A DNA stretch of 64,000 nucleotides from an uncultured delta proteobacterium (GTDB lineage: Bacteria > Myxococcota > UBA727 > VGSZ01): positions 384,001 to 448,000 of the forward strand of contig CAVZJB010000004.1 of the NCBI GenBank assembly GCA_963775425.1. The letters are read 5' to 3'. Both the position numbers and the translations under genes were made by a program. Below, piece by piece: positions 3,001 to 45,323 of this stretch. Below the pieces are notes generated by a model, which was given only the letters and a program-made list of their open reading frames with translations, made no database searches and was not told the DNA's origin. The stretch's first letter is position 1, and each line of letters starts with the position of its first letter.

Positions 3001-3029
3001 ACTACACGCAGGCCTGTAACAACCCGTAG
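3..3029 (+). CDS. Large exported protein, 5'-truncated: two InlB-B-like Cys repeats, internal MYXO-CTERM-like segment plus lipobox, Ig-like domains, two c-type heme motifs
   Basis: Frame is open from the window start into ORF 270..3029. Repeats 'V.GQG.G.V.S.P.G..C...C...F...TLTA...S.F.GW.G.C.G' occur twice. GFNCASS..LALVAGGLLFLRRRR is followed by LTAC. CGVCH at 2334-2348 and CMGCH at 2733-2747. Confidence 0.85.
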   Translation, partial: GNVLYNKTIVGTANIGRPSIARVSDTSTIFCSSNGDNRPPEFGVACAAVDALTGDKTWDNNTCTPARGNNTQGSCLIAQSHPNANPPTYMNQPIVALGENGRFYVQVEQSNGPPNNNNNNARGATTTMLYTLLPNATGPSIQGHVESIGLNQVHATTCTGKYGQDAKVHVAVVDSSITGSGIGAVQLEKFDITGQTLTQVGNPLALSGYPADSGYLANQDGQNPNDQGRDFMRCIGDIANPGFGVANGFMPTVQSFFAIPFAGCADDQGAACDPDVNPNNPEKNSLFLSLLPAEEPAPAPIVTHDLSVVVDGQGTGKVFSSPLGVDGCDSGATCTATFDEGTNITLTALAGEGSIFSGWQGACTGTGGCVVAMSQAQQVTATFDVGGVIVNDPVGLIVSVLGQGDGSVTSDPAGITCTGGTCASNFDRNSSVTLTATPGAGSKFTGWNGDCSGTEPCVLTLSAARNVTAVFDLDPNAPDGGDNGNGNGGDVTKAPGASSTGFNCASSGSSPSAYAMLALVAGGLLFLRRRRSVLTGAASAAVAVGLVASLTACPAAAPTPVIDAFVADQPTVAAGTPVQLSYQVHDAEAVTISVLAGVDVLPFSDQLSGTIFTPPVTVPTTFVITAFGPALAGRAPIQSTKTVSVTVGDPANPTPSEGEGEGENNVAVHAQILSFGPSATNVTTGDSVTLTWQTSNAASGVILANDAVLTTITASDLTTGTFGTTPDASAVYTLSLSGSDGQLVTSTTAVNVSPPGVGPLTAEAMFSSNVEPILQSKCGVCHESGNASGYPDLFGTSSPDTYYQRVTADSRFIPAVPEDSLLLLKGEHTGPAFLPAEAQQVTAWLVQEAGERGTGSTGPTDPGPTGNFQPTTLAEALTRFGACMDRQVWDNTVGQGNNTRIAQQNTTQGKCMGCHSSGTAGAFLSASSGDTFDMNRTRPYVLKLVLSTANVDGSFKDLVAARRFEKKGSEGGDHPSYQLTQARLDAINSFVDQTLTSYHDYTQACNNP

Positions 3030-3066
3030 TAGCGCATTGCGCACACGAGTGCGCTAGGCTCGCTCC

Positions 3067-3777
3067 ATGGAGCCGGCAACGATCCTGGTCGTCGATGACG
3101 AGCCGGATCTTTGCCGGCTCCTCCAATTCAACCTCGGCGAAGCCGGGTTCGTCCCGCAGGTCGCCGAGAGCGGCACCGAGGGCCTCGCCGCCGCCGAGAA
3201 GCACCGCCCGAGCGTCGTCGTCCTCGATCTCATGCTGCCCGACCTGCCGGGCACCGAGGTCTGCCGGCGCCTGCGCGCGCACCCCGACCTCCATGACGTC
3301 GGCATCCTGATGCTCACGGCGCGCAGCGACGACTACGACCGCATCGTCGGCTTCGAGCTCGGTTGCGACGACTACGTGGTGAAGCCGTTCAACGTGCGCG
3401 AGGTGATGTTGCGCGTGCGCGCCCTGGCCCGCCGCGTGAGCGATCGGCGCGCGGCGGCGGCGGCCAACGCGGGGATCTCGAGCGGCCGCGTGGTGTCGTG
3501 GCGCGGCCTGAAGGTCGACATCGATCGCCACGACGTCACGGCGGACGGCGAGGAGCTCCATCTGCGCCCCGTCGAGTTCCGGCTGCTGACGGCGCTCCTC
3601 GAGAACCCGGGCACCGTGTTGTCGCGCGAGCGGCTCCTCGAAGAGGTGTGGGGCGCCGACGAGGTGAGCACGCGCACCGTCGACACCCACGTGAAGCGCC
3701 TGCGCCAACGGCTCGGCGCATACGGGGAGTGCATCGAGACCGTGGTCGGCTTCGGCTACCGCGTTCGCGAGCCGTGA
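3067..3777 (+). CDS. OmpR/PhoB-family response regulator (PhoB-like)
   Basis: ILVVDDE, LDLMLP, DDYVVKPF receiver motifs; winged-helix tail TRTVDTHVKRLRQRLG..IETVVGFGY. Confidence 0.93.
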   Translation: MEPATILVVDDEPDLCRLLQFNLGEAGFVPQVAESGTEGLAAAEKHRPSVVVLDLMLPDLPGTEVCRRLRAHPDLHDVGILMLTARSDDYDRIVGFELGCDDYVVKPFNVREVMLRVRALARRVSDRRAAAAANAGISSGRVVSWRGLKVDIDRHDVTADGEELHLRPVEFRLLTALLENPGTVLSRERLLEEVWGADEVSTRTVDTHVKRLRQRLGAYGECIETVVGFGYRVREP

Positions 3778-5486
3778 AGCTCACCTTCCGGGTGAAGCTG
3801 ATGCTCGGCTACGTCGCCCTCGTGGCGGTCGCCGAGATCCTCACCGTCGTCGCCCTCGACCGCTCCCTGTCCGCCGAGCTCACCACACAGCTCGCGCGGC
3901 GCCTCGAGGACCAGGCCAAGGGCTCCGCCGAGTGGGTGGCCGCGGGGAGGCACCCCTCGGTGGTCGCCGGGCGCCTGTCGCACATCGCGAGCGCGCGCGT
4001 CACGCTCATCGACAAGGACGGCGCCGTGCTCGGCGACTCCGGCCCCGACGCCCCCGACGACGCCAGCGCGACGCCGGAGGTGGCTGCTGTGCGCGCCGGC
4101 AGGATCGGGCGCGACGTTCGCAAGAACCCGCACCTCGACGAGGAGGTGCTCTACGTCGCCGTCCCCGCGCCCGAGGGCATCGTGGTGCGGCTGGCGGCGC
4201 CGCTGTCCGACGTGAACAGCACGTTGTCGTTGTTGCGCCAACGACTGCTGCTGGTGTCGGCGGTGGTGTTCGTGCTGGCGGTGCTGTTGGCGCTGGTGGC
4301 GGCGCGCCTGCTCGCGTTGCCGTTGGTGGCCATGCGCGATGCAGCGCGCGGCATCGCCCAGGGCGACTACGACGTGCACCTGCCGCCGGGGCCGCAGGAC
4401 GAGTTCGGCGATCTCTCGCGCTCGCTGCGCTCGCTGGCCGATCAGCTCGACGCGCGCATCGGCGAGATCGTGTCGCAGAGGAACCGTTTGCAGACCGTGC
4501 TGGCGTCGATGATCGAGGGCGTCGTCGTGCTCGACGCCGAGCGCAAGGTGGAGCTCGCCAACCCGTCCGCCGAGCGCCTGCTCGGCCGCGGCGCGCTTGC
4601 CGGCCGCTCGCTCGACGACATCGTCGTGGTGCCGGCGCTGCGCGCGCTGTTCGATTCGGCGGGGGCCGAGGGCGCCGCCGCCGAGGTCGAAGACGGCGAG
4701 CGCGTGCTGGCGGCGACGGTGCAGCCCCTGTCCGACGGCGGCGCGGTCTGCGTGCTCCACGACGTCACGGCGCCCCGCCGCATGGAGGCGATGCGCCGCC
4801 AGTTCATCGGCGACATCTCCCACGAGATCGGCACACCGGTGTCGGCCATCCAGGGCTACGCGGAGACGCTGATGTCGAAGAAGCAGCTCGACCCGGCGAT
4901 CACCACCGAGTTCCTCGAGATCATCCATCGCCACGCGCGCCGCATCGGCAACCTCGTCGCCGACCTCCGCTTCCTGTCGGCGCTCGAGGGCCGCGTGCCG
5001 GACGCGCACGAGGCCCGCGAGCCCGTCAGCCTCCGCGAGCTGGCGCACCACGTGAGCGAGACCGTTCGCCCCCGCGCCGAGGAGCGGAAGACCTCCGTGA
5101 GCATCGACATCGACGACGACGTCGTCGCGCTGGGCGACACCGACCACGTGGAGCGCGTGCTGCTGAACCTCGTGGACAACGCCGTGAAGTACGGGCGCGC
5201 CGGCGGCACCATCACCGTACGGGGTCGGAAGAAGGGCGGACGTGTCGTCGTCGAGGTCACCGACGACGGGCCGGGTATCCCCGCCGACCACATCGACCGC
5301 GTCTTCGACCGCTTCTACCGCGTCGACCGCGGTCGCTCCCGCGCCGTCGGCGGAACGGGCCTCGGCCTCGCCATCGTGAAGCAGCTCGCCGAGGCGATGG
5401 GCGGCAGCGCCGCGGTGACGAGCGAGCTCGGCAAGGGTGCCCGCTTCGTCGTCGAGCTCCCCGCCGTCGACATGGCAAACGCATGA
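3774..5486 (+). CDS. PhoR-like sensor histidine kinase (2 TM, HAMP, PAS, HisKA, HATPase)
   Basis: GTG overlaps the regulator stop (GTGA). H-box DISHEIGTP, N-box NLVDNAVKY, DDGPGI, FDRFYRVD, GGTGLGL. Confidence 0.92.
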   Translation: MKLTFRVKLMLGYVALVAVAEILTVVALDRSLSAELTTQLARRLEDQAKGSAEWVAAGRHPSVVAGRLSHIASARVTLIDKDGAVLGDSGPDAPDDASATPEVAAVRAGRIGRDVRKNPHLDEEVLYVAVPAPEGIVVRLAAPLSDVNSTLSLLRQRLLLVSAVVFVLAVLLALVAARLLALPLVAMRDAARGIAQGDYDVHLPPGPQDEFGDLSRSLRSLADQLDARIGEIVSQRNRLQTVLASMIEGVVVLDAERKVELANPSAERLLGRGALAGRSLDDIVVVPALRALFDSAGAEGAAAEVEDGERVLAATVQPLSDGGAVCVLHDVTAPRRMEAMRRQFIGDISHEIGTPVSAIQGYAETLMSKKQLDPAITTEFLEIIHRHARRIGNLVADLRFLSALEGRVPDAHEAREPVSLRELAHHVSETVRPRAEERKTSVSIDIDDDVVALGDTDHVERVLLNLVDNAVKYGRAGGTITVRGRKKGGRVVVEVTDDGPGIPADHIDRVFDRFYRVDRGRSRAVGGTGLGLAIVKQLAEAMGGSAAVTSELGKGARFVVELPAVDMANA

Positions 5487-5561
5487 CACGCGCTTGGCCG
5501 CGCGACGACACGGGACCGACCGATTGACCTCGTCACGAGCGCGGCTTTAGCGTGGCTCATC

Positions 5562-6185
5562 ATGAAAAAACTCAATGGCCTTCTCGTCCTCTCGTCGTTC
5601 CTGATGCTGCCCCTGCTGTCCACCGCCTGCCCGCCCGCCGTGGGCGAAGGCGAAGGCGAAGGCGAAGGCGAAGGTGAAGGTGAAGGTGAAGGTGAAGGTG
5701 AAGGCGAAGGCGAAGGCGAAGGCGAAGGAGAGGGCGAAGGCGAAGGAGATGCTTGTCTCTCCGGTGGCACCGCTTTGACGACGACGGGCGCGGGCCGCTG
5801 CGACGACCCGAAGGTGGTCACCATCGCGAGCACGGGCACGTTCGTCGTGCAGACGGGCGCGGACCAGACCAACGGCAACAACGCCAACCTCGACACGTGC
5901 GCCAACGGCCAGACCGCGCGTGACGTCGCCTTCCAGCTCGATCTTCCCGCGGGCGTGACGACGTTGCAGGCGAGCGTGGACGCTGGCGGCGGGTCCCCCC
6001 TCGTCAACATCTTCTCCGGCGCGGCGTGCGGCCAGACCGTGAACCAGTGCGCGGCGACGAGCGGCGCGTGCGCCACTGCGACGGCGACGTCGGGGACGGA
6101 CTTCACGGGGACGTCGATCTTCGTCTCCGTCTCCGAGGAGACCGCCACCGCCAACGACTACGCCCTGCGACTCGACGTCCAATGA
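5562..6185 (+). CDS. Lipoprotein with (Gly-Glu)17 linker and Cys-containing beta domain
   Basis: MKK plus hydrophobic stretch plus STAC lipobox; GE tract at 5643-5747. Confidence 0.85.
5643..5747 (+). repeat. 6-bp coding microsatellite (GGN GAR)x17
   Basis: Direct reading; synonymous variation between units. Confidence 0.95.
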
Positions 6186-6595
6186 GAGCCCGAGCGCTCA
6201 CCTCGCTCGCCGGCGTCGCCGCCGCGGGACTGCTCGCCGGCGTCTGGCCGAGCTGTCTCCCCGACGGCCCGCCGGAGATCTGCGACAACGGGATCGACGA
6301 CGACGGCGACGGCAACGTCGACTGCGACGACGCCGACTGCGAAGCCGAGTGCGCCGTCACCGCTGGCGAGGGCGAAGGGGAAGGCGAAGGCGAGGGCGAG
6401 GGCGAAGGGGAAGGCGAAGGGGAGGGCGAAGGGGAGGGCGAAGGGGAGGGCGAAGGTGAGGGTGAGGGTGAGGGCGAAGGTGAGGGTGAAGGCGAGGGCG
6501 AAGGTGAGGGTGAGGGTGAAGGCGAGGGCGAAGGTGAGGGCGAAGGCGAAGGCGAGGGAGAGGGCGAGGGTGAAGGTGAAGGCGAGGGCGAATGA
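6182..6595 (+). CDS. Small exported protein or lipoprotein with an [22 protein letters not shown] acidic motif and a C-terminal (GE)~38 tail
   Basis: ATG overlaps the previous stop (ATGA); signal peptide ending PSC; stop overlaps the next ATG. Confidence 0.8.
6365..6592 (+). repeat. 6-bp coding microsatellite, about 38 Gly-Glu units
   Basis: 228 nt of GGN GAR running into the stop codon. Confidence 0.95.
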
Positions 6596-8814
6596 TGAGG
6601 ATGTCGACGGCAGCGCTCGCGTGCGCGCTCGTCGCTGCGGTGCCCGCGCGAGCGGGGGTGGAGACCTCGTGGGACTGCTTCTTCGCCGCCGAAGGCGTTG
6701 ATTGCTCCCAGCTCGAAGAAGCGTTCTTCCACGCGACCCCGTTGTTGATCCGTGTCGACGCGCCGGACAAGCCGGCGCCCTACGACGGTGGAGCCGTGCA
6801 CCCGTCGAGCGACGAGCGCGCCGGGGCCTCGCCGGCGTCGGGCGAGCCGGGCGCGACGTGGGGCGCCGGGGCGTCGCCGGCGTCGGGCACGCCGGGCGCG
6901 ACGTGGGGCGCCGGGGCGTCGCCGGCGTCGGGCACGCCGGGCGCGACGTGGGGCGCCGGGGCGTCGCCGGCGGCGGGCACGCCGGGCGCGACGTCGGGCG
7001 CAGGGGCGTCGCCGGCGGCGGGCACGCCGGGCGCGACGTGGGGCGCAGGGGCGTCGCCGGCGTCGGGCACGCCGGGCGCGACGTCGGGCGCAGGGACGTC
7101 GCCGGCGTCGGGCACGCCGGGCGCGACCTCGGGCGCAGGGACGTCGCCGGCGGCGGGCACGCCGGGCGCGACCTCGGGCGCAGGGACGTCACCGGCGGCG
7201 GGCACGCCGGGCGCGACCTCGGGCGCAGGGACGTCGCCGGCGGCGGGCACGCCGGGCGCGACCTCGGGCGCAGGGACGTCGCCGACGGCGGGCGCGCCGG
7301 GCGCGACCTCGGGCGCAGGGACGTCGCCGGCGGCGGGCACGCCGGGCGCGACCTCGGGCGCCGGGACCTCGCCGGCGGCGGGCGAGCCGGCCGCCACGTG
7401 GGACGCCGGGACGTCGCCGGCGTCGGGCACGCCTGCGGCCGCGTCGGGCGCAGCGACGTCACCGTCGTCGGGCGCCGCGACGGCGCCGGAGCCGCCGGGT
7501 GCAGGCGCTCCGGCGCACGCCGCACCACCGGCAGCGCCGGACGACTCCTCGCACGCGGCGCCGGACGCTCCCCCTCAGGCATCGACGCACGCGGATGCGT
7601 CGACGAGGCGGGTCGCGGTGGTGCTGCGCAGCACGCCGTTCACCGGGGGCGTCGAGTACAGCATCGACATCACCGGCGCCGACGGGCGCGAGCACGTGGG
7701 CATCGTGGACCGCGTGCCGTCGACCTTCTCCGACGCCACCGTCGGCAATGGCAGCGGCGGCGGCGGCGGGCTCGGCGGCGGCGCCGACACCGGCGGCGGC
7801 GGCGGACAGGGGACGGGCGGCGGCAGCGGCCGCGGCCGCGTCTCGCGCAGCGCCGTCGTCGTCCTCCGCCTCGTCGCCGATCTCCAGCGGGCGATCGTGC
7901 CGTTCCTCTCCGCCGACCACCCCGCCGTCGTCGACGACGACGGCATGACGCTCTCCCTCAAGGACCCCGCCTTCACGCCGGGCCAGGCGCGCGTCGAGGA
8001 CCGCGCCGCCCGCTGGTTCGCGAGCCCTACGTTCTCCGGCGACGTCTCCCAGACCGCCCTCCTGCGCATCCAGGGCCGCGCGCAGCTCGACGCCAACTGG
8101 TCCAATCCGCTCTTTCGCGTCTTCGGCACGTCGTGGGCCGGCTTCACGTTCCTCTCCGCGCCGGGGCCGCGGGAGAAGGACCCGGCCCAGACCTTCGGCT
8201 ACGCCATCGACGGCCTCGACGTCACCGGCGCCAGCGTCCTCGGCGGCGGCTGGAGCGTCGGTGTCGAGGGCCGCGTCACCCAGGCGCCCGACCAGAACTG
8301 GTTGCTGCGGGCCTCCGGCTACACCGGCGTCGAGTGGGTCCTCGTGCCCTTCCTCGCCACCAACGGCGGCAACGTCGGCGTCCGCTACGTCATCGGCACC
8401 GAGCACCAGGAGTACGTCCACGAAAACGTCGAGAAGTCGTTCGAAGGAAACTTTCTCCGCCACCGGCTCGTCGCCTTCGGCGTCTGGCACTTCGAGCGCG
8501 TCGACCTCTCCGCGTCTCTCGCCGGCAGCTCCATCGTCAAGGACTTCACCTACTCGGACGTGTCCGCCGCGGCCAGCGTGGCGTGGCGCGTGGTCAACGA
8601 CCTCTCCGTCTCCCTGTCGACGACGGCGTCGTACCGAAACGCGCTCGTCAACGCCCCCGACAACCTCAACGAGCTCGATCCGCTCGAGCGGTTCGTCGGC
8701 GGGGGAAACTTCGGCGCCGTGAACTACACGGCGTCGCTGTCGTTGGTCTACGTCCTCGGCAACTCGCTGCTCGAGCGCCAGGACCAGAGGTGGAGCAATG
8801 GCACCGAGCAGTGA
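6592..8814 (+). CDS. Putative outer-membrane beta-barrel protein with N-terminal Cys pair and low-complexity insert
   Basis: Signal peptide (ARA-G); WDC..DC motif; C-terminal ~280 aa of alternating, aromatic-rich beta strands. Confidence 0.7.
6820..7449 (+). repeat. 45-bp tandem repeat x14 encoding AG(A/T)SP(A/S)(S/A)GTPGAT(W/S)G
   Basis: 630 nt equals 14 x 45; read directly. Confidence 0.95.
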
Positions 8815-8815
8815 G

Positions 8816-9397
8816 TCACTGCGGCGTCAGGCGCAACCCGACGTCGGGGCCGTTTGCGCCGCCGCCGCCTCCGCCGCCTCCGCCGCCGCCGCCTCCGCCG
8901 CCTCCGCCGCCGCCGCCACCACCGCCGCCGGTGGCGCGGAACTGCAGCTCGCCGGCGTCGTCGGCGTTGACGGTGGTCGAGCCACAGGCGCCGTCGGGGT
9001 TGGTGACGTTGACCGTCTCGAAGAAGCGGAAGCCCACCGTGCTCGGGCAGCCCGACGTCGAGCACGGCTTGTTCACGGCTTGCACGAGCACCGCTTGACC
9101 CGGTTGGTAGCCGCCGACGACGAAGTAGCCCTTGAGGCTGTTGAAGGCGGCGCCGTCGACGGTGTCGCCGAAGAGCACGACGTCGTCGCCGCCGGCGTCG
9201 ATGGCGAGGGCGGTGGCGGTGCTGTCGTTGCTCAGATCGTGCTGAACGTAGAGCGCCGCCCCGTCGCAGGGCGACGAGATGTCGAGCGTGTCACCCTCCC
9301 CTTCTCCCTCGCCGCCGAGGCGATCGGAGTAGCGCTGGCACGCGCAAGCGGTCACCAGCGTCAGGAGGAGGACGACGCGTGATGAGAATCGGTTCAC
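8816..9397 (-). CDS. Lipoprotein with short GE tract and poly-Gly segment, function unknown
   Basis: GTG at 9397 with GGAG upstream; VVLLLTLVTAC lipobox; poly-Gly at about 8856-8930. Confidence 0.75.
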   Translation of the reverse strand: MNRFSSRVVLLLTLVTACACQRYSDRLGGEGEGEGDTLDISSPCDGAALYVQHDLSNDSTATALAIDAGGDDVVLFGDTVDGAAFNSLKGYFVVGGYQPGQAVLVQAVNKPCSTSGCPSTVGFRFFETVNVTNPDGACGSTTVNADDAGELQFRATGGGGGGGGGGGGGGGGGGGGGGGGANGPDVGLRLTPQ

Positions 9398-9467: not shown

Positions 9468-9956
9468 ATGACGGCGGGACATCGGATGATCCTCGGACTT
9501 GCGCTGCTCGCGTCGCTGCCCGCCCTCGGTCAAACGACGGCGGCGCCCGCGGAACCGCCGCCCAACCCCGGGCGGCCCGTGCACGTCGTCGAGGAGCGCG
9601 CCCTCGAGGTGAGGGTCGGCGCCGACGTCGTCGCCAGGGTGACGTCGGCGGATCTCGCCAAGGTCACCCCGCTGCCGACGGCGCGAAAGACCGGGGGCAA
9701 GACACACCTGTGGCCGCTCAAGGACGCCCTCGCCGCCGTCGCAGGGCCGAAGGCCCGCCTCGTCGCCGTGACGCTGCCGGGGGGTCAGCGGCTGGCCGTC
9801 GACGAGAAGGCCTGGGCGGACCCGGAGCGGATCCCGGTGGTGTGGCAGAACCGGCGCGGGCTCTTCAAGCTCGGCTGGGTCGATAAGCTCGGACAGCGCA
9901 TCCCAGACAGCCAGGAGCTGAGGGACGTGCGCGCTCTGGAGATCGTGAGGCCCTGA
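9468..9956 (+). CDS. Exported protein, possibly a degenerate molybdopterin-oxidoreductase-like (Oxidored_molyb) domain
   Basis: Signal peptide (ALG-Q). Pattern SADLAKV...WPLKDAL...LRDVRALEIV loosely recalls the family's 'dL..l / Gv.L.dll / vk.l..Iev' pattern. No Cys. Fold call is weak. Confidence 0.55.
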   Translation: MTAGHRMILGLALLASLPALGQTTAAPAEPPPNPGRPVHVVEERALEVRVGADVVARVTSADLAKVTPLPTARKTGGKTHLWPLKDALAAVAGPKARLVAVTLPGGQRLAVDEKAWADPERIPVVWQNRRGLFKLGWVDKLGQRIPDSQELRDVRALEIVRP

Positions 9957-9959
9957 AGC

Positions 9960-11369
9960 ATGCCCGCCGTCGACGACGTTCATGCGCCGGTGCGCGGGGG
10001 CCTCGATCCTCGCCTGCGCGTGCTCTTCCTCCTCGCCGTCGCCGTCGGGGTCTTCTTCCTGCACGTCGTGTGGCAGGCCGCGGCGGCGTGCGGCGCGCTC
10101 GCGGTGCTGTGGCTCGTCGTCAAGCTGCCCCCGAGGCGCTTGCTGCGGCAGGTGCTCAAGCTCTGGGGCTTCGCGCTCTTCGTCCTCGTGTCGTACGCGT
10201 TCTTCGCGAACAACCCGGCCACGGATCGATGGGAACAGCTCCCGATCGTCCCTGTGCGCATCAACGTCTCCGCGCTCGTGCTCGGCTGCTTGATGATCCT
10301 GCGCGTCATCGCCGTCATCCTCGCCTCGCAGGTCGCGCGCGCCGGCGACGTCCGCGCCGTCGCCGCCGGCCTCGGCAAGCTCGGCGTGCCGCGCATCGTC
10401 GCCGTCTCCATCGACACGGTGCTCTCGCTCCTCGGCGACGAGCCGCGTGGCCGCATGGGGCGCGGCAGCGGCGGCGGCACGGGGCGCGGCGGGGGCGGGG
10501 GCGGGGGCGGCCGAGGCGACGGCGGCGGCGGGGGACGCGGGCGTGGCGACGGCGAGCGCGCTCACGACGGCGACGGCGGCGGCGGCGGTTTCTGGCAGGC
10601 GGTGCGCCGAATCGCGCGCGGCGACGTCGAGCCCATCGTCCAGCGGCTCTCGCGCCAGATCGATCGCGCGCACGAGCACGCCGAGGCGCAGAGCGACGCC
10701 CTCACGGAGAAGGAGCGCACGCGCGTGGCAGACATCGGGGTCATCGCCGGTGTCTCGCTCACCATGCTCGGCATCAAGGCCCTCAAGATCCTGCCGAGCA
10801 TCCCCTTCGCGCCGGGCCACAAGCTCGTGTTGCTCACGCCGCTGTACATCGTCGCCGGGATGCTGACCCGCGGGCGGGGCGGCGCCACGCTCACGGGGCT
10901 CACCATGGGGACGGTGGCGTTCCTCATGGGTGACGGCAAGTACGGCGTGTTCGAGATCGTGAAGCACGTGGTGCCCGGCATCATCACGGACCTCTGCCTG
11001 CCCCTCGTCGCCGGCGGCGGGCGCAGACCGGGCGGCGTGGTGTGGACGCTGTTCGGTGGCGTCATCGCCGCGGGCCGCTTCGCCACCATCTTCGTCATCA
11101 CGCTGCTCGTTCAGGCCCCGGCTGTGGCGTACGCCATCCTCGTGCCCGGGCTGACGGTGCACATCACGTTCGGCCTCGCGTCGGGCTACGTCACCTTCCA
11201 CATCGTGCGCGCGCTCGATCGCTTGCCGGCGGCAGCGGCGGGGCGCTTCCCCCCGCGCGTGGATGCCCGCGGCGGCGCGCCCCCCGCCGCCGACGCGCCG
11301 GCTGACGACGCCGGCGGCGCCCCCCTCGAAGCCGGCGCAACGCCGGCGGAGCTCAAGGAGACAGGATGA
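9960..11369 (+). CDS. ECF transporter T-component (CbiQ/EcfT-like) fused to an S-component-like membrane domain
   Basis: N-terminal LDPR motif, TM helices and 'GLGKLGVP' typical of EcfT. C-terminal ~170 aa of about 6 TM helices with 'GGATLTG...PGIITDL' typical of S components. Confidence 0.75.
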   Translation: MPAVDDVHAPVRGGLDPRLRVLFLLAVAVGVFFLHVVWQAAAACGALAVLWLVVKLPPRRLLRQVLKLWGFALFVLVSYAFFANNPATDRWEQLPIVPVRINVSALVLGCLMILRVIAVILASQVARAGDVRAVAAGLGKLGVPRIVAVSIDTVLSLLGDEPRGRMGRGSGGGTGRGGGGGGGGRGDGGGGGRGRGDGERAHDGDGGGGGFWQAVRRIARGDVEPIVQRLSRQIDRAHEHAEAQSDALTEKERTRVADIGVIAGVSLTMLGIKALKILPSIPFAPGHKLVLLTPLYIVAGMLTRGRGGATLTGLTMGTVAFLMGDGKYGVFEIVKHVVPGIITDLCLPLVAGGGRRPGGVVWTLFGGVIAAGRFATIFVITLLVQAPAVAYAILVPGLTVHITFGLASGYVTFHIVRALDRLPAAAAGRFPPRVDARGGAPPAADAPADDAGGAPLEAGATPAELKETG

Positions 11370-12202
11370 ACAAGTTGGTCAAAGGCGACGGCCGCACGCA
11401 CATCGAGAGCTCTCTCATGCGCGAATCGCTCGTCGACAAGCGCGTCATCGCGCGTACGCAATCGGAGCACGAGCTCGCCATCGTTCCCGACGTCAAGCTC
11501 GTCGGCATCGGCGGGCAGTCGATCTTCGACCGCGGCAAGGAGGGCGTGCTGCCGCTCGTCGAGGAGATCAAGGACGCGCGGGCCAAGAAGAAGCGCATGG
11601 TGCTCGGCGTCGGCGGCGGGACCCGCGTGCGCCACACCGTCTCCATCGCCTACGACCTCGGCATCCCGGTGGGCGGCATCGCGCAGCTCGTCGGCGCCAT
11701 GGAAGAGGCGAACGCGGTGTTCTTGAACGCGCTGCTCGCCAAGAACGGGTCCATCGTGATGCAGCGGGAGCACTTCTGGGAGCTGCCGCTGTACCTCGAG
11801 AGCGGGATGTTGCCGATCATCATCAGCATCCCGCCGTATCACTTCTGGGAGCCGCCGGTCGACGACAGTCCCCTGCCCTCCCACGGCAGCGACTTCGGCC
11901 TGTTCATCTACGCCGAGGTGCTCGGCATGGAGCACGTCATCTTCGTCAAGGACGAGGACGGCATGTACGACAAGGACCCCAAGGCGCACGACGACGCCAA
12001 GCTCATCAAGAGCACCACGCTGGGGGCGCTGCTCGCGGACATGCCCGAGGAGCTCATCCTCGACCGCATGCTCTTCGAGGCGTGGCGCTCCGCGCGGCAC
12101 GTGAAGCGCGTCCAGATCGTCAACGGGCTCAAGCAGGGCGAGCTCACGCGCGCGTTGAACGGCGAGGACGCCGGCACCATCATCACGAAGGAGACGGCAT
12201 GA
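11366..12202 (+). CDS. mosA: Molybdenum storage protein alpha-like subunit (amino acid kinase fold)
   Basis: HIESSLMRESLVD N-terminus, DRG..GVLPLVEE, GTRVRH, DLGIPVG, PPYHFWE, ARHVKRVQIVNGL..G.LTRAL.GE..GT match Azotobacter MosA as recalled. Confidence 0.85.
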   Translation: MNKLVKGDGRTHIESSLMRESLVDKRVIARTQSEHELAIVPDVKLVGIGGQSIFDRGKEGVLPLVEEIKDARAKKKRMVLGVGGGTRVRHTVSIAYDLGIPVGGIAQLVGAMEEANAVFLNALLAKNGSIVMQREHFWELPLYLESGMLPIIISIPPYHFWEPPVDDSPLPSHGSDFGLFIYAEVLGMEHVIFVKDEDGMYDKDPKAHDDAKLIKSTTLGALLADMPEELILDRMLFEAWRSARHVKRVQIVNGLKQGELTRALNGEDAGTIITKETA

Positions 12203-13002
12203 GCGAGCGAAGAGTGATCGAGAGCGCGCTGGCGCAGTCGTCGATGACGAACCCGGCCACGGCGGGGTTCAGCTACGACGCCCAGGCGATGATGCCGGAC
12301 GTCAAGGTCATCAAGATCGGCGGGCAGTCGATCATGGACCGCGGGCGCGCAGCGGTGTTCCCCGTGCTCGACGAGCTCGTCGCCGCCAAGGCGCAGCACA
12401 AGCTGCTGCTTGGCTGCGGCGGCGGCACGCGCGCGCGGCACGTGTACGCGGTGGCGTCCGACCTCGAGATGCCCACGGGCGTGCTGGCCGCGCTCGGCGG
12501 CTACGTCCCCATGCAGAACGCGCGCATGGTGCAGATGCTGCTCGCCAAGCACGGCGGCATCTACATCATGCACGACGACTTCGAGAAGCTGCCGCTCTAC
12601 TTCCAGCTCGGCTGCATCCCCATCATGACGGGCATGCCGCCGTTTTCGTATTGGGAGAAGCCCGGCGAGCATGGCCGCATCCCGCAGAACCGCACGGACG
12701 CCGGCGTGTTCCTCTCGGCGGAGGTGCTCGGTGCCAAGCGCGCGCTGTACATCAAAGACGAGGACGGCCTGTTCGAGGACGACCCGAAGAAGAACAAGAC
12801 CGCCAAGCACATCCCGCGCATCACCGCCGCCGAGCTCATCGAGCGCAACCTCGATGACCTCATCGTCGAGCGCGTGGTTATCGAGTACCTGCGGCACGCG
12901 CGCTTCTGTCACGAGCTTCAGATCGTGAACGGCCTGAAGCCCGGCAACATCACGCGCGCCCTCGCCGGCGAGGACGTGGGGACCATCATCACGAAGGAGT
13001 GA
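12199..13002 (+). CDS. mosB: Molybdenum storage protein beta-like subunit
   Basis: ATGA overlap. VIKIGGQSIMDRGRAAVFP, HKLL, GTRARH, GMPP, IP..RTDAG.FL.AE, KDEDGL, TRALAGE.VGTIIT closely match Azotobacter MosB as recalled. Confidence 0.88.
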   Translation: MSERRVIESALAQSSMTNPATAGFSYDAQAMMPDVKVIKIGGQSIMDRGRAAVFPVLDELVAAKAQHKLLLGCGGGTRARHVYAVASDLEMPTGVLAALGGYVPMQNARMVQMLLAKHGGIYIMHDDFEKLPLYFQLGCIPIMTGMPPFSYWEKPGEHGRIPQNRTDAGVFLSAEVLGAKRALYIKDEDGLFEDDPKKNKTAKHIPRITAAELIERNLDDLIVERVVIEYLRHARFCHELQIVNGLKPGNITRALAGEDVGTIITKE

Positions 13003-14094: not shown

Positions 14095-16776
14095 TCAGGG
14101 TCCGATCTTCATCGGCATGGTGACGGGCACCGGCGACGACGCGCGCGTGGCCGGGAACCGCCAGCGCTTGATCTCGCTGACGACGCAATTGCCCGCCGGC
14201 GTTCCCGCGAACTTGGAGTCGAGCACGGAGACGTTGGTGGTGTTGCCGCGCGCCTGGATCTTCCAAGCCATCTTGATCACGCCGCTCGCGCTGTGCCGCC
14301 GGCCGCACTTCTCGACGTTGCCGAGGTGCGACTTGACGACGACGAGGACGTCCGCCTTGGACAGCGAGTCCTTGACCGAGCCCGCCCTGTCGGCCGCGCG
14401 GCTGCTCTCGGACCTCCCGCTCGCCTTGCAGTCGAAGTCGAGCACCGGATCGCAGCCCTTGGGCGTCGCGTGCGACGCCGTGACCGCCGGCGGCGGGCTC
14501 GTGTGGTGCGTGCTCGTGTCCGCGCGGGGGTGCCGCGCGTGCGTGTCGTGGTGGACGGGCGCGTGGCTGGGGGCCGCGTGCTCGGGCTCGTCGGCGGAGG
14601 CGACCTTCCCGCCCTCGTCCTTGTCCTTCGCCGCGTCGGCCGCGTGCTCGTCGGGCTTGGCGTCCGGCTTGGCGTCGTCCGGCTTGGCGGCGTCCGGCTT
14701 GGCGGCGTCCGGTTTGGCGTCGTCCTTCGCGGTGGCGTCCTTCTTGTCGGCGTCGGCTTTCTTGTCGTCGGCCTTCTTGTCGTCGGCCTTTTCGTCGTCG
14801 GCCTTCTTACCGCCGCCGGCGAGCGGCATGAGCTTCCCGTCGGCGCCCATCACGAAGGTCTTGCCGTCGACCTGCACGAGCTTGGGGCCGTCGTCCTTCT
14901 TGAGGGCCACCACCGTGAGCACCACGATGAGCAACAGCACGACGACGCCGACGCCGATGCCGGCCGCGAGCATCATCGGCGACATGCGCGACGGCTGCGG
15001 CGGGGTGGTCATGAAGCCGCCCGGCGGCGGATACGACGGGGTCACCGCGGGCGCGTTGAACGAGGGCAGCGCGCCGCCCGCCGGCGCGAGGGGCGCACCG
15101 ACCTCGGGTCCGGCCTCGAGATCCTTGCCGGCGCCGAGCGAGCCGAACAGCGGGGCGTTGATCGACGCGTCGTCGGCGGGCGCGAGGTCGTCGTCGGCGG
15201 CGGGCATCGGGCCGTTGTCGATGCGCTTGATCTCGTCCTGCACCAGCGACGCCAGCGCGGACGCCGCCGCCGGCCGCCACTCCGGCTCCGCCGACGCCGA
15301 CGACGGCGGCGACGACGACGCGGTGGGCGCCTTGGAGGGGCCGCCGACCGCGCCGAGCGATCCGAGCGACCCCATGCCCGCCATCTCGGCGAGGTTGGCG
15401 GCCTGGTACACGTCGGTGAGGCCGTGAGGGCGCCACGAAGCGTCGTCGCTCGGCTCGTCGAAGGGGCTCGGTCCGGCGGCGGTGGCGCCGGGCGGGAGGC
15501 CGTCGCCGATGCCGTCGATGCCGAAGGCCGCGGCGCCGCCGGCCTGCGCGGCCCGGCCGCGGTCGTCCTCGACGCGCGGGATGTGCGGCATGGGCACCTT
15601 GTCGAAGAGGGCGCGCACGGCGGGCACCTCGCCGGCGGGGAGCCAGTCCTCCATGCCGATCTTCCACACGAGGCTCTCGCGATCGACGCGACCGGCCTCG
15701 ATGTGGCGGCCGACCTCACCGAGCGCGAGCGGGCCGACGTCCTGGTCGTCGATGGCGACGTGCCACACCTGCTCCGCCGGCCCGTCGTCGGCGCCGTCGG
15801 GGCTGCCTGGATCGGGGCCGCGCACGAGGCCCGGCTCGAGCTCGCGCGGATCGGGGCCGGCGTCGAAGCCCAGCGGGGAGTCCGCGGTCTGCTTGCGCAG
15901 CGCGTCCATGGCGCCGACGTCGAGGACGCGGGTGGGCCCGCGGTGATCGTCCCCCTCGGCGGAGGGGGTCGCGGAGCCGTCGAACATGGCGTTGAACGCG
16001 CCGGCGAGCTGGTCGTCGAGCCCGCCGTCCTCGTCGGAGGAAGCGCTTTGCGGCGGCGGCGGCGGCACCGGCAGGTCGTCGTCCTCGTCGTCGGCCGCCC
16101 GTTGGTCCGTCACCACGGTGGTGTCGACGCCGCCGCGCGCGGCCCGAGCGGGCTCGTGCTCGTCGCTGCGATCATCGCTGCGATCATCGCTGTGGTCGCC
16201 GTCGTCGCGCTCGTCCTCGGGGGGCGGCGACGGCGGCGCCTGCGCGCCCGTCACCTGCGGCGCGTGCGCCGAGAGCTCGGTTCGGTCGTCGTGCCCTCGC
16301 TCCTCGGGCTCCGACGGGAGACCGAGGTCGAGGGGGTTCTTGGTGAGCTGGGTCGCGTCGCCGAACAGCGAGACGGGGGCGGGCGCCGACGGCCCCGTGG
16401 TCTCGGGCGACGGCTCGTCGTCGTCCCGGGCGCGCTCCTGCTGTGCGCGCATGTCGGGGACGCCCGGATCGGTGGGGCCGCCCTGCGCGAAGATGTCGCC
16501 GCCGCTGTCGTCGTCGGGCGGGGACGCGCCGAGGTCGAGCCCGGGCGGCGGGGGCTGCATCTCGGTCACGACGGGCTTCTCGACGGCGGGCGCGGGCTTG
16601 GGCGCCTTCGCGGGCTTGTCCTCGGCCTTCTTGGCCTCAGCGGGCGCGGCGTTCTTGTCGGGCCGCACGATGATGACGTGCTGGCACTTCTTGCACTTGA
16701 CCTTGACGCCGCGCTTTCCGACCTTCTCGTCGGCGATCATGTATTGGGCGTGGCAACTGTCGCACTCGAACTTCAT
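14095..16776 (-). CDS. gltJ: Gliding motility protein GltJ/AgmX
   Basis: Zn ribbon CDSC..CKKC; GYF-like WHVAID..DVGP...VWKIGMEDW; WRPAAASALASLVQDE; single TM; TonB-like C-terminal domain. Confidence 0.85.
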   Translation of the reverse strand: MKFECDSCHAQYMIADEKVGKRGVKVKCKKCQHVIIVRPDKNAAPAEAKKAEDKPAKAPKPAPAVEKPVVTEMQPPPPGLDLGASPPDDDSGGDIFAQGGPTDPGVPDMRAQQERARDDDEPSPETTGPSAPAPVSLFGDATQLTKNPLDLGLPSEPEERGHDDRTELSAHAPQVTGAQAPPSPPPEDERDDGDHSDDRSDDRSDEHEPARAARGGVDTTVVTDQRAADDEDDDLPVPPPPPQSASSDEDGGLDDQLAGAFNAMFDGSATPSAEGDDHRGPTRVLDVGAMDALRKQTADSPLGFDAGPDPRELEPGLVRGPDPGSPDGADDGPAEQVWHVAIDDQDVGPLALGEVGRHIEAGRVDRESLVWKIGMEDWLPAGEVPAVRALFDKVPMPHIPRVEDDRGRAAQAGGAAAFGIDGIGDGLPPGATAAGPSPFDEPSDDASWRPHGLTDVYQAANLAEMAGMGSLGSLGAVGGPSKAPTASSSPPSSASAEPEWRPAAASALASLVQDEIKRIDNGPMPAADDDLAPADDASINAPLFGSLGAGKDLEAGPEVGAPLAPAGGALPSFNAPAVTPSYPPPGGFMTTPPQPSRMSPMMLAAGIGVGVVVLLLIVVLTVVALKKDDGPKLVQVDGKTFVMGADGKLMPLAGGGKKADDEKADDKKADDKKADADKKDATAKDDAKPDAAKPDAAKPDDAKPDAKPDEHAADAAKDKDEGGKVASADEPEHAAPSHAPVHHDTHARHPRADTSTHHTSPPPAVTASHATPKGCDPVLDFDCKASGRSESSRAADRAGSVKDSLSKADVLVVVKSHLGNVEKCGRRHSASGVIKMAWKIQARGNTTNVSVLDSKFAGTPAGNCVVSEIKRWRFPATRASSPVPVTMPMKIGP

Positions 16777-17531: not shown

Positions 17532-20500
17532 TCAGCTCCCGATGCCCGTGCCGAGGCGCTGGCGCAGCTCGAAGTTCTCGTCGCTCACCGCGAACAGCAG
17601 CAGCTCTCGCACCTTGGCGCCGTGCGCCAGCGGGATGGCGCCGGGATCGGGTTGCTTGAGGAGCGCCATGCACAGCTCGAGATCACCGGTGAGCAGGTAC
17701 CCCGCACGAATGGCGGTGTGCTCCATGCCCTCGAGGAACGGCTTCGTCGACGCGGCCTTCTTGGTCTTCAACACCTCGGCGGCCGCGGGCTTGAGGGCGT
17801 TGGCGAGCGGAGCGCCGATGCGCGCGAGCGCCTTTTCGAAACGATCGACGTCGGCGGGCTCGCCGCGCACGGGATAGCGGCGGTCGACGAAGTGAAGCGC
17901 GACGTCGACGAGCGTGTTGAAGCGCTGCGCGCCCATGGTGCGCGGGAGCATGTAGGCCGGCCGGAGCGCCGTGAGCTGGCGGCCGATGGTGAACCACAGC
18001 CTCCGCCCCTGCGTCTCGGACAGGAGCGGGCTCGCCTTGCCGAGCGCGAGCGTGGGCTGCTCGAGGCAGAGCGGGTAGAGCGGGTCGGCGCTGTTGTGCT
18101 TCTGGTAGAGCTCGAAGCCGCCGGTGGCGAGCACGCCGCGCACGTGCTTGAGCTGGTTGATGAAGTATGGCTGCACGGGGGCGTCGAGGTCGACGCGCTC
18201 CATGTCGCCGCGGCGCACGCCGATGTTGTACACGCGCGGCTCGAGCGCGAGCACGCTTCCCGCGGAGCGCCACAGAGTGGCGCTGATGGTGGCGATGGCG
18301 CCGCGCGCGGCGGGGTGCACGAGGAACGCCTCCCACAGCTTGTCGGTCATCGCGCGGCGCGCTTGCGGCGGCACCTGCTTGACGTACAGCGAGAGGATGT
18401 CGGCTTCGCTCGGCTGGAGATCGCCGAGCACGCGCAGCGCCTGCGCGAACACGTAGGCGCGATCGATGGCCTTGCGCGCGAGCGCGATGCGCACCAGCTC
18501 GTGCAGGGCGCGCGTGATCTTGTCGGGGTTGAGCTGGATGAGCTTGCTGTACGCGGCCGCCGCCTCGTCGATGCCCGCCGGGTTCCGGGCGAGGAGATCG
18601 GCGAGCACCTCCACCGCCTCCGCGCTGTTCGGCTGCATCCTCACGATCACGCGGTACGCCTGGGTGGCGCCGTCGAGGTTGCGCAGGCGGAAACGGTAGA
18701 GGTCGCCGAGGTTCTTCCACAGCACCTCTTTGATGCCCGCGCGCGTGTCGGGGATGCGCTTGAGCATCGCGATGTAGTTCTCTTCGAGCGCCGGCCAGTT
18801 CCCCGTCGACGACAACAGGCTCTCGATGCTCTCGAACGCCTTGACGAAGTTGGGATCGAGATCGAGCGCCGCGTTGAAGTACTGCACCGCGCGCTGATCG
18901 TTCTTGATCTCGTCGCGGTAGACCTCGCCGAGGGTCTGGTTGAGGCGAACGCGCGAGTCCTGATCCTGCTCGACGCGTACGAGCTCCTCGAGCACCTCCA
19001 CCGCACGCGGCCCCTGCCGCGTCTGCCGATAGAGCTGCAACATGCTCTCGAGGATCTCCTTGTCGCCCGGCCGCTGGCGGTTGGCGTCTTCGTAGGCGTC
19101 GATGGCGCGATAGGGATCGTCGAGCTCGCCGGTGGCGAGTCGGCCGATCTCGATGAGCAGGTTGGTGCGCTCGTCGCCGAACACGAGGGGCACGAGGCGG
19201 ATGAGCACCTCGTACGCGTCCTCGAACTGTCCGTCGCCGACGAGGACGTTGGCCATCAAGCGCAGGGAAGGCGCGTGGTTGGGATCGAGCTCGAGCGCCT
19301 TCTCGAGCGACTTGATGGCGCGGTCGCCCTGCCCGAGCTTGTGGTTGAGGTCGGCGACCTGCTGGTAGTAGTCGACGACCTCGGCGTCGGTGAGGCCGTC
19401 GCGGTGGTGGATGAGGATGGCCTGGTAGATCTTGGCCGCGTCCTCCCACCGCCCGGACTTCGACAACGCCGCCCCGAGCCCCTCGAGCGCGGGGAGATAG
19501 GTCGCGTCGATCTCGTACGCGCGCTGGTAGTTTTTGAGCGCCTTGGCGTCCTTGCCGAGCTTCTCGCAGACGTAGCCGAGGCGGTAGTGCTGGCGGCAGA
19601 GGTCGGCGGCGTCGTCCTGCGGGTCGAGGCGCTCGACGATGATGTCGAGCAACTGCTCCGCCCGCTGCCAGTTCTCGTCGCGGAAGGCGATGTCCGCCAG
19701 CGGCTTGGCCGCCGCGAGGTGGTCGAACGTGAGGGCGAGCGCCTTCTCGAGCTCTTCGGAGGCGCCCTCGAGGTCCGCGAGCGTGTCCTGGAGGAACAGG
19801 CCGGTGGTGGTGTGGATCTCGGTGCGTTGCACCTCGTCCTCGGTGTACTTGGCCTCCTCGCGCAGCCACTGCAGGTACTCGGCGTTTTCACCCTTCTGCA
19901 GGGCGATGTTCTTGAGCGCCTGGATGGACGGCAGGTGGCTCGGCTCCACGTCGAGCGCGGCCTTGTACGCCAGCACGGCGTTGCCGACGTCGAGCAGCAT
20001 CTGCTCGTTGATGTTGCCGATGCGGTGGTAGATCTCCACCGCCTCCTTGGAGGCGCCGAGGAGCTGTGCCTCCGCCTGCAGCTTCTCGAGGGCGTTGAAC
20101 CAGTTGCCGCTCTTTTCGTAGAGCGCGCCCAGGGAGTGGATGGCGCCCTGTGACCCCGGGTCGAAGTCGAGAGCGGCCGTGTACATCTGCTCGGCCTTGT
20201 CCTGGCGTCCGAGCTCCTGCGCGTAGACCTGGCCGATGGCGAGGTAGAGCTGCACGATCTCCTGCGGATCGCGCGTCAGCGAGATGTGGGCCTCGTAGGT
20301 CTTGACGAGGTCCTCCCACTGGCCCTGCGCGCGGTAGAGGCGCTCGAGGTTCTCGACGGCGCGCACGTTGTCGGCGTCGACCTGGAGCACCCGCTGGTTG
20401 GCCTCGATGGCCATGCCGGCGTCCTCGAGGCTCTCCTCCCAGGTGGCGCCGACCTTGGACAGCAGGCGTACGGCTTCGTCGGTGGAAGGCGCGAGCTCGA

Positions 20501-44386: not shown

Positions 44387-44623
44387 AGAGACTGGCCTCC
44401 GCGTCGTCGGAACAACCTCGCTGTTAACACTTTGGCCGAAGCGCAGACAACTTCGCGCCTGGGCGCAGCCACGCGCCGGCGTCCGGGAGATGACCGGCGT
44501 CCGGTAGATGACCGGTACGGCCGGCGGCGCCTACACCAACGGCGCACGGGCGTGGTAGAGATCCCGGTCAAGCGGTGACGGTTCTGCGGGCGTCGGCCCA
44601 AACCGCACCCGAGGTGCTCATTC

Positions 44624-45163: not shown

Positions 45164-45323
45164 CGTAAGCCACGGACCTACATGCCCGCCCCGCGCCATC
45201 AGGAGGCGGGTGTGATCTCGCGGAGATCCTCCGCGGGCGCTGCTCGTTCATACTCATGGTTCTGGCGGATGAACAAAACCGCGCCCGTGGTTGTCCCAAC
45301 GAGAATATCCGGGGTCTGATCTC

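Follow-up and report, generated by a model that had tools for sequence, protein, structure and literature searches.

Does a molybdenum storage protein work together with a membrane protein of its own? The question is raised by four co-oriented genes on the plus strand (g1-g2-g3-g4, from the ORF list), which span positions 9468-13002 of the window, that is, the whole stretch of 64,000 nucleotides analysed here (C4:384001-448000). The initial annotation read this quartet as an operon for the capture and storage of molybdate, tungstate or Moco, composed of an exported protein, an ATPase-less fusion of the T and S components of an ECF transporter, and the storage protein MosAB. We followed up this reading by comparing the genes with known families and structures, with related loci, and with the rest of the host genome.

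Operon structure and the storage protein genes

The compact arrangement of the four genes given in the initial annotation was confirmed from the sequence (Table 1). The g1/g2 junction reads TGA-agc-ATG at 9954-9962, leaving a 3-bp gap, the start codon of g3 overlaps the stop codon of g2 as ATGA at 11366-11369, and a second ATGA overlap joins g3 and g4 at 12199-12202. Shine-Dalgarno-like sequences (AAGGAG / GAAGGAG) were found immediately 5' of g3 and g4. Since the flanking genes on either side are encoded on the minus strand, g1-g4 form a closed unit.

Table 1 Genes of the operon and domains of g2, in window coordinates.
Feature	Position	Strand	Length or residues	Description	Source
g1	9468..9956	+	162 aa	Exported protein, small beta-rich domain	ORF
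g2	9960..11369	+	469 aa	Membrane protein, EcfT-like half + S-component-like half	ORF
g3 (mos1)	11366..12202	+	278 aa	MoSto-like amino-acid-kinase-fold subunit	ORF
g4 (mos2)	12199..13002	+	267 aa	MoSto-like subunit, start confirmed	ORF
g2 N-domain	9987..10436	+	residues 10-159	First cytoplasmic helix + four TM helices, truncated EcfT/CbiQ-like	
g2 Gly/Arg-rich disordered loop	10437..10589	+	residues 160-210	Predicted cytoplasmic	
g2 cytoplasmic helices	10590..10688	+	residues 211-243	A-R-G-D motif at 219-222	
g2 C-domain	10707..11219	+	residues 250-420	Six TM helices, S-component-like predicted fold	

Sequence similarity clearly places g3 and g4 among the homologues of the Azotobacter vinelandii molybdenum storage protein (MoSto; MosA/MosB; PDB 2ogx, 4f6t and 6gu5, among others), with which they share full-length similarity and the presence of two adjacent, paralogous subunits of the amino-acid-kinase fold. 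Both matched the Pfam family AA_kinase (E = 2e-16 for g3 and 1.5e-20 for g4), and MosB was a closer match than MosA for each of them. Among PDB sequences, g3 matched MosB (6ris_B) at 5.3e-58 and MosA (2ogx_A) at 6.9e-43, and g4 matched MosB (2ogx_B) over its full length at 3.6e-76 (259 bits) and MosA at ~3e-42 to 9e-42. The initial name 'MosAB' was thus right about MoSto homology, but both subunits are closer to MosB, and g3, which reads VGIGGQS, is missing the lysine of the K-x-G-G motif, a residue whose role we assume from the kinase family. In all 12 aligned mos1 sequences this lysine is replaced by V, S or N and GGGTR is kept, whereas in the alignment g4 (mos2) retains both K-I-G-G and GGGTR.

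A tree built from 32 sequences separated the clades containing mos1 (m1) and mos2 (m2) from pairs of the same phylum that lack g2 (split support 97/91). Furthermore, the g3/g4 clade differs from MoSto in having an obligatory membrane partner gene; in A. vinelandii, mosAB presumably has no such gene beside it. To our knowledge, MoSto has been studied in a single organism. It was described in 2019 as 'rather unique ... having no known homologs' (PMC6448029). MoSto is a hexameric cage that stores Mo/W at the expense of ATP, and another study lists among the ligands of its polyoxometalate clusters His156 and Glu129 as well as three His residues situated on the threefold axis (PMC4504029).

The first gene of the quartet has a signal-peptide-like N-terminus (MTAGHRMILGLALLASLPALG). 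g1 matched no Pfam or NCBIfam family, seven homologues of it were found, and its profile retrieved nothing relevant from PDB sequences. With its AF2 model (pLDDT 79.8), the top Foldseek match was PruR (Atu3496; 7kos_A; E 0.16, prob 0.82), a putative pterin-binding protein with the SUOX fold that we take to be periplasmic. The nearest Atlas clusters, which are small Oxidored_molyb proteins (PF00174; score 0.89 with 188 features shared), agree with this best structural neighbour. However, g1 and PruR have no match at the sequence level and a TM-score of merely 0.39-0.42, and these similarities are leads to a possibly SUOX/PruR-like fold rather than evidence of membership. It should be noted that g1 is only loosely linked to the g2-mos unit, lying directly upstream of g2 in just three of the ten loci that have upstream sequence, which weakens its inclusion in the module as first annotated.

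Domain architecture of the membrane protein g2

g2 is predicted to contain 10 TM helices (AF2 model pLDDT 82, pTM 0.81), and the candidates that were scored included 281 homologues at E<=1e-3. In nine loci its two halves are encoded in a single reading frame, and in one (L015) they fall into two frames. Of the 150 representative clusters listed, 94 have both halves.

The N-terminal half resembles EcfT. Residues 14-149 matched positions 7-140 of the Pfam CbiQ profile (28.8 bits, cut-off 25), the g2 family profile found the EcfT chains 4hzu_T and 4huq_T in the PDB (E 6e-4 and 7e-4), and a Foldseek search with the N-domain gave EcfT 7nnt_D (prob 0.99, TMt 0.39, E 1.0). The EcfT assignment made at the outset is consistent with these matches, but the CbiQ match is truncated at position 140 of 216, and the score against NCBIfam TIGR02454 (39.3 bits) was far under the cut-off of 111.8. 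Searching the whole host genome in six frames, PF02361 found nothing at E<=1e-3, and therefore no canonical CbiQ.

The loop that follows has a pLDDT below 50 at residues 162-207. A Gly/Arg-rich stretch was found in 36/36 aligned homologues, and among 94 two-domain representatives that are more distant, a crude count gave 25 in which G and R make up at least 50% of the linker. Beyond the loop, the model places helices at residues 211-219 and 224-243. Two Ala-Arg-Gly motifs on the cytoplasmic coupling helices are given as a hallmark of EcfT in a published paper (PMC11109136). Compared by eye, A219-R220-G221-D222 of g2, in which G221 and D222 are invariant in all 36 homologues, resembles the second of these motifs and may be equivalent to it. 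The first motif was unrecognisable in g2 by eye, and the Gly/Arg-rich loop occupies its expected place.

The C-terminal half has six helices across residues 256-420 in the AF2 model, and its predicted fold resembles that of S-components. Foldseek matches of the C-domain included the S-component 5edl (prob 0.94, TMt 0.53), TmRibU (5kbw_A; prob 0.85, TMt 0.63) and ThiT (4muu_A; prob 0.72, TMt 0.54), with weak E-values of 0.7-2.1. The sequence itself gives no such assignment. Residues 211-469 matched no Pfam family at E<=10, and the profile search with the C-domain led to a family of its own, small and self-contained, with 283 clusters, so that the S half of the initial annotation stands as a predicted fold, and the C-domain did not turn out to cluster with a vitamin-specific S family. 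Atlas neighbours carrying PF09819 and PF09605 scored below 0.9 and are leads only, and an MreD-family cluster was also among the Atlas neighbours. An AxxxA motif in helix 1 of S-components binds EcfT, as stated in the same paper (PMC11109136). The strict motif is absent from helix 1 of the C-domain in both the window protein and the aligned homologues; in its place g2 has G260-V-I-A-G264, a small-xxx-small variant that mostly reads A-V-I-A-G in homologues, with G264 invariant.

Taken as a whole, g2 resembles ECF transporters in its truncated CbiQ/EcfT match by sequence and fold, its six-helix half with an S-like predicted fold and its one A-R-G-D motif on a cytoplasmic helix. In contrast to these transporters, it has the T-like and S-like parts in one chain with the Gly/Arg-rich loop inserted, and it lacks S-family membership by sequence.

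Linkage to mos genes and molybdate context

The pairing of g2 with mos genes proposed in the initial annotation was borne out in other genomes. The order g2-mos1-mos2 is conserved in 11 of 12 related loci taken from genome_contigs, and in the twelfth (L005) the contig stops after g2. Within a 401-genome sample of the phylum, Mos was found in nine genomes and the g2 C-domain in five, all five of which have Mos. g2 adjoins Mos in three of these genomes (G114, G074, G022), and in G249 both lie at contig ends.

Two library proteins, each the representative of one cluster, join g2 to a partner in a single chain. P0180 (732 aa) consists of a g2-like protein (Pfam CbiQ, 39.9 bits), a linker of ~70 aa and an m1-type Mos domain (AA_kinase, 59.9 bits), and the C-terminal position of Mos agrees with the predicted cytoplasmic C-terminus of g2. 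In P0178 (855 aa), a full ModC including its TOBE domain (TIGR02142, 312.7 bits, cut-off 285.05) precedes a g2-like protein; this ModC::g2 fusion was found once among the 150 listed representatives.

modA lies directly 3' of mos2 in five of the 11 evaluable loci (L006, L009, L011, L014 and L044; TIGR01256, 120-191 bits, cut-off 62.5). modB was above its cut-off in L006 and L014, where the ATPases best match ModC, and ModC-like genes occur 1.4-1.5 kb downstream of mos2 in L006, L009, L011 and L014. Together with the ModC::g2 fusion, this neighbourhood supports the link to molybdate made in the initial annotation, and both the Mo link and the coupling of g2 with Mos are well supported. g2 thus shares its metal context with the ModABC/WtpABC importers; it has no similarity to ModB. 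No modABC was found alongside the window operon or in the other six evaluable loci. The ModC-like genes were the only ABC ATPases in the related loci, and loci without modABC had none.

In the host genome (completeness 94.55%), TIGR04520 gave 79 ABC-ATPase matches, none of them in the window. The best match to TIGR04520 reached 161.8 bits (cut-off 315) and that to TIGR01166 150.4 bits (cut-off 211.8), and hence no ATPase of the EcfA or CbiO type was found above cut-off in the genome; as in the operon and the related loci, the EcfA/A' genes of ECF transporters were missing. Nor were mod genes found in the window, and ModA had no match anywhere in the genome. These searches uphold the earlier statement that the window encodes no ABC/ECF ATPase and no modABC. 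Contig C11 of the same genome encodes a WtpA/ModB/ModC-like ABC system, all scores of which are under the curated cut-offs. Because of this system and of the modABC genes in the operons of relatives, g2 would not be required as a molybdate importer, which weakens that part of the initial proposal. The genome encodes a MoaA-like protein and molybdopterin oxidoreductases and belongs to a non-diazotroph. No NifH was found in it, suggesting that the stored metal would go to Moco enzymes and not to nitrogenase.

Possible roles of the g2-Mos pair

We tentatively favour, with slightly less than even confidence, a Mo (or W) homeostasis module in which a distinct MoSto clade is coupled to g2 in function and probably also by physical contact. 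The S-like domain of g2 would bind the oxyanion at the periplasmic face, assisted by g1 in some genomes, and let it go at the cytoplasmic face. There, a storage protein made of the two paralogous amino-acid-kinase-fold subunits, mos1 and mos2, would be docked on the cytoplasmic helices or the loop of g2 and would capture the oxyanion by ATP-dependent deposition as polyoxometalate, and no ABC ATPase belonging to g2 would take part. What the genes encode, their conserved linkage and their molybdate context are observed, and we infer that Mos docks on g2, which way transport runs, what is carried and how energy is coupled; likewise, g2 itself may import molybdate, and the store may act as sink or may energise g2. 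On general grounds, and as a point against this model, a passive carrier would have to let a divalent anion in against the membrane potential, which would be energetically hard. A precedent for ATPase-independent transport is provided by the solitary S-components BioY and BtuM, which transport without an ECF module according to the paper cited above (PMC11109136). They share with g2 an S-fold unit without dedicated ATPases, whereas g2 retains an EcfT-like scaffold and has a cytoplasmic, ATP-using storage protein as its genetic partner. That the Mos-like complex replaces the EcfA ATPases outright, docking on the EcfT-like helices and the Gly/Arg loop and driving the S-like domain so as to pump molybdate or tungstate directly from the periplasm into the cage, we regard as unlikely.

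Alternatively, g2 could be a non-transporting membrane anchor, sensor or regulator of the store, with the S-fold as a receptor or scaffold and molybdate entering via ModABC/WtpABC. The modABC genes co-encoded in five of 11 loci, the Wtp/Mod-like system of the host genome and the lack of a strict AxxxA motif fit such a role, and the P0180 fusion suits tethering and transport equally well. The S-fold is also known, from the paper cited (PMC11109136), in non-transporters such as MreD and sensor kinases, and an MreD-family cluster is among the Atlas neighbours. However, modABC is missing beside the window operon and in six of 11 evaluable loci, and many charged or polar positions of the C-domain are invariant (K276, K288, D325, E332, H336, D344, R373), a pattern more characteristic of a site for binding or translocation. 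As the EcfT-like scaffold is, moreover, known from transporters only, we hold an anchoring, sensing or regulatory g2 that does not transport to be somewhat unlikely.

A distinctly unlikely explanation is that g2 is an ATP-driven importer powered by a ModC-type, not EcfA-type, ABC ATPase encoded elsewhere. P0178, with its complete ModC at the N-terminus of a g2-like protein, supports it, along with the ModC-like genes downstream of mos2 in four loci, the ModC/WtpC-like ATPase on C11 and the single conserved A-R-G-D motif, EcfT-type cytoplasmic helices being established docking sites of ABC ATPases in ECF transporters. Yet such a fusion was seen only once, neither the window nor the remaining loci encode an ABC ATPase, the ModC genes of the loci come with their own ModB, and g2 departs from EcfT both in its unrecognisable first Ala-Arg-Gly motif and in its truncated profile match. 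It is very improbable that the substrate is a small molecule such as a pterin or Moco, trapped by the Mos-like proteins acting as kinases, rather than a Mo/W oxyanion. The PruR and Oxidored_molyb leads for g1 point that way, the vitamins carried by known S-components include folate, a pterin, and the amino-acid-kinase fold is a kinase fold. Against this, g1 is an inconstant neighbour with a weak fold assignment, g4 is similar to MosB over its full length, and the modABC linkage and the ModC fusion indicate molybdate.

A separate clade of MoSto homologues is thus always accompanied by a dedicated membrane protein, here in a non-diazotroph, and the conserved g2-Mos pairing suggests that molybdate may be passed across the membrane to its store by a route not described before; we found no published description of an ECF-Mos coupling. 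The three- or four-gene operon is compact enough for direct testing in E. coli. If Mos does drive g2, the pair would be an ECF-type importer with a non-ABC ATPase, combining uptake and storage in one machine. If g2 and Mos work together, they would show how a metal store is connected with the membrane, extend the ECF-like world by a T-S fused member that lacks an ATPase, and provide a testable example in which capture by a store drives transport.

Operon organization and linkage of g2 to storage protein genes

The four genes reported in the initial annotation, encoding an exported protein (g1), a membrane protein that fuses EcfT-like and S-component-like parts (g2) and two molybdenum storage (MoSto, Mos) proteins (g3, mos1; g4, mos2), were present as described, co-oriented on the forward strand. 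Their junctions read TGA-agc-ATG (g1/g2), ATGA (g2/g3) and ATGA (g3/g4), and Shine-Dalgarno-like sequences (AAGGAG / GAAGGAG) precede g3 and g4. The flanking genes lie on the opposite strand on both sides, and the G+C content is ~70% throughout. A Pfam search of these flanking genes found no tie to molybdenum, and a promoter and terminator scan gave nothing useful. The Rfam search of the window returned zero matches, and therefore no Moco riboswitch.

Immediately upstream of the operon there are several coding tandem repeats, including (GGCGAA)n, which encodes Gly-Glu runs, and a CGC run; the proteins that hold them have no Pfam family. A neighbouring gene encodes a GYF_2 protein, beyond which lie two very long open reading frames (ORFs).

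Features of the operon, its surroundings and related loci
Sequence	Feature	Position	Strand	Description
Window	g1	9468-9956	+	162 aa ORF
Window	g2	9960-11369	+	469 aa ORF
Window	g2 loop	10437-10589	+	Gly/Arg-rich, low complexity; residues 160-210
Window	g3 (mos1)	11366-12202	+	278 aa ORF
Window	g4 (mos2)	12199-13002	+	267 aa ORF, start confirmed
Window	Coding tandem repeats	5643-5746, 6365-6592, 6818-7473, 8857-8930		
Window	740-aa ORF	6592-8814		Holds 45-bp unit x14.6
Window	893-aa protein	14095-16776	-	N-terminal zinc ribbon and GYF_2 domain
Window	Two long ORFs	17532-30201	-	2386 and 2247 aa
L015	g2 halves	5938-7286		Two overlapping frames
L007	CxxCH exported protein	4017-5901		Upstream of g2
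L008	CxxCH exported protein	4952-5929		Upstream of g2
L010	CxxCH exported protein	4357-5292		Upstream of g2
L039	ABC ATPase	4189-4779		Directly downstream of g2-less Mos pair
L040	ABC ATPase	2656-3240		Directly downstream of g2-less Mos pair
L041	modA-like gene	547-1560		Upstream of g2-less Mos pair
L022 (G000:C11)	Mo/W-type ABC system	43376-46599		Own genome

The gene-neighbourhood survey proposed in the initial annotation linked g2 to the storage genes. Scanning one genome from each species identified 12 loci encoding a g2 relative, and mos1 and then mos2 directly follow g2 in 11 of them; a contig end cuts mos2 in L004, and the contig of L005 stops 63 bases past g2. Recurrence of this order in 11 of the 12 loci rules out chance adjacency. 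Within a 401-genome sample of the phylum, Mos proteins occurred in nine genomes (our own included) and the g2 C-domain in five, all five among the nine; this survey overlaps the locus scan and is not independent of it, as L015 shares its contig with G022:C75 and L005 matches G249:C173. In the four genomes with Mos but without g2 (G261, G282, G292, G334), the identity of the Mos proteins to g4 does not exceed 52%.

A profile of the g2 C-domain retrieved 283 clusters among 1.84 billion representatives, 225 of them at E ≤ 1e-10. Both halves of g2 were found in 94 of the 150 representatives listed out of the 283 (median 407 aa), the other 56 being mostly fragments. One single cluster representative, P0180, joins g2, a linker and a mos1-type Mos domain in one protein; another, P0130, is a chimeric gene call, yet g2 followed by mos1 is visible in it. 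A search for longer proteins containing g2 found no related long fusion, which is weak evidence. We consider it very probable that g2 is coupled to this MoSto clade.

The two halves of g2 occupy a single frame in nine loci and two overlapping frames in L015, which may represent a natural two-gene split or else a frameshift within the G-rich linker.

Two storage protein homologues

Both g3 and g4 have the amino-acid-kinase fold (Pfam PF00696) and give full-length matches to the solved Azotobacter vinelandii MoSto chains. Among PDB sequences, MosB is nearer than MosA to both g3 (5.3e-58 against 6.9e-43) and g4 (3.6e-76, 259 bits, against about 3e-42 to 9e-42), and the runners-up, UMP and isopentenyl-phosphate kinases, have E > 1e-7. 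Given these full-length matches and the distance to other kinases, g3 and g4 are MoSto homologues, both more MosB-like. MosB was also the first PDB match for both genes of one g2-less pair.

In alignments of the related loci both subunits were highly conserved, mean column identity being 72% for mos1 (n = 12) and 78% for mos2 (n = 11). The K-I-G-G motif is kept in mos2, whereas the Lys of K-x-G-G is absent from all 12 mos1 sequences; in four Mos loci of the phylum that lack g2, 7/7 genes keep this Lys. A tree of 32 Mos sequences, which is unrooted and places the long-branched single gene c_L042 uncertainly, supported a mos1 clade (100/100) and a mos2 clade (99/96), and separated both from two clades of g2-less pairs (97/91). 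An N-terminal peptide (G-D-G-R-T-H ... L-M-R-E-S-L) and the motif P-P-Y-H-F-W-E-P-P are invariant in mos1 of the window and of loci L004-L015. Possibly, mos1 is a docking subunit for g2 that has no catalytic activity.

Architecture of the membrane protein

The Pfam CbiQ match of g2 was just above threshold and covered only the model's first two thirds, and its NCBIfam match was far below cut-off. A profile of the g2 family (36 homologues) matched the EcfT chains 4hzu_T (E 6e-4) and 4huq_T (E 7e-4). Database names of g2 homologues are "hypothetical protein" or "CbiQ family ECF transporter T component". The C-terminal half matched zero Pfam families at E ≤ 10, and its Atlas neighbours, none of which reached the 0.9 mark, were unnamed ~190-aa proteins and two putative S-component families.

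The AF2 model of g2 was confident (pLDDT 82, pTM 0.81). Along the chain it has four transmembrane helices and a periplasmic hairpin, followed by cytoplasmic helices, a disordered stretch (162-207), helices bearing the A-R-G-D motif and six more transmembrane helices. By analogy with EcfT and S-component topology, we infer ten helices with both termini cytoplasmic. Fold comparison was by Foldseek alone and is weak by E-value: every match had E > 1e-3, and those of high probability were limited to EcfT (7nnt_D, prob 0.99) and three S-components (5edl, prob 0.94; TmRibU, prob 0.85, TMt 0.63; ThiT, prob 0.72). Helix 1 of the S-component-like half carries G/A-x-x-x-G in place of the strict AxxxA motif described for S-components (PMC11109136). 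The sequence ARAGD (residues 126-130) was dropped as an Ala-Arg-Gly motif, since the HMMER alignment to EcfT puts it after TM4 and off any coupling helix.

The Gly/Arg-rich loop (GGGGRGRGGGG...) is kept in 36/36 close homologues, across which numerous charged residues of the membrane part are likewise invariant. Similar G/R stretches occur at the C-terminus of the cluster representative P0178 and in the P0180 linker. As a guess, this loop might bind polyoxoanions or the Mos complex.

Molybdate context and possible role of g2

A modA gene lies directly after mos2 in L006, L009, L011, L014 and L044, that is, in 5 of 11 evaluable loci (TIGR01256, 120-191 bits, cut-off 62.5), and L006 and L014 also have a modB above cut-off. 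That many related operons contain modABC strengthens the assignment to molybdenum and removes the argument from need made in the initial annotation. Transport genes also lie beside g2-less Mos pairs of the phylum.

Our own genome assembly (8.26 Mb, 18 contigs, 94.55% complete) contained no detectable ModA, NifH or canonical CbiQ. Its only Mo/W-type ABC system, on contig C11, scores under all curated cut-offs; a WtpA-like binding protein adjoins a long frame with ModB/WtpB-like and ModC/WtpC-like parts, possibly a fused permease-ATPase. A MoaA-like gene just under cut-off and three PF00384 loci were also found.

We tentatively propose, at somewhat less than an even chance, that g2 would deliver an oxyanion to a docked store that uses ATP, with no ABC ATPase involved. 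The initial annotation had noted no ABC ATPase in the window, and indeed none of the 79 genome matches to the ABC-ATPase model fell inside C4:384001-448000; EcfA1 and CbiO were likewise absent above cut-off from the genome. ModC is the best match of the ATPases in L006 and L014, and P0178, a single cluster representative, consists of a complete ModC followed by g2. Energization of g2 by a ModC-type ATPase is an improbable alternative. A non-transporting anchor or sensor is a somewhat stronger candidate and still unlikely.

Least probable, in our view, is that the substrate is a pterin, Moco or another compound. The leads in this direction come from g1, which matches no family in Pfam or NCBIfam and whose N-terminus, by eye, resembles a signal peptide: the best Foldseek match of its model (pLDDT 79.8) was PruR, a putative pterin-binding protein (E 0.16, prob 0.82), and its Atlas lead was small Oxidored_molyb proteins (score 0.89). 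Seven homologues of g1 were found. The g1 profile matched nothing relevant among PDB sequences, leaving both leads without sequence-profile confirmation. Upstream sequence was available for 10 loci; in three of them (L004, L014, L044) the gene immediately before g2 is g1-like, and L008 has a weak g1-like match at 3 kb upstream. An exported CxxCH protein (haem-binding-like, by eye) replaces g1 in L007, L008 and L010.

MoSto is stated in a passage of PMC6448029 to have no known homologues. Literature searches combining MoSto with "energy-coupling factor" (matches judged by title) found no description of a coupling, those combining "Molybdenum storage protein" with "Myxococc" found nothing, and no mention of molybdenum or of a T-S fusion was found in passages of PMC11109136. 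The g2-MoSto system is thus not yet described in the literature searched. The delivery role proposed for g2 is tentative; the place of g2 and its MoSto clade in molybdenum homeostasis is well supported.
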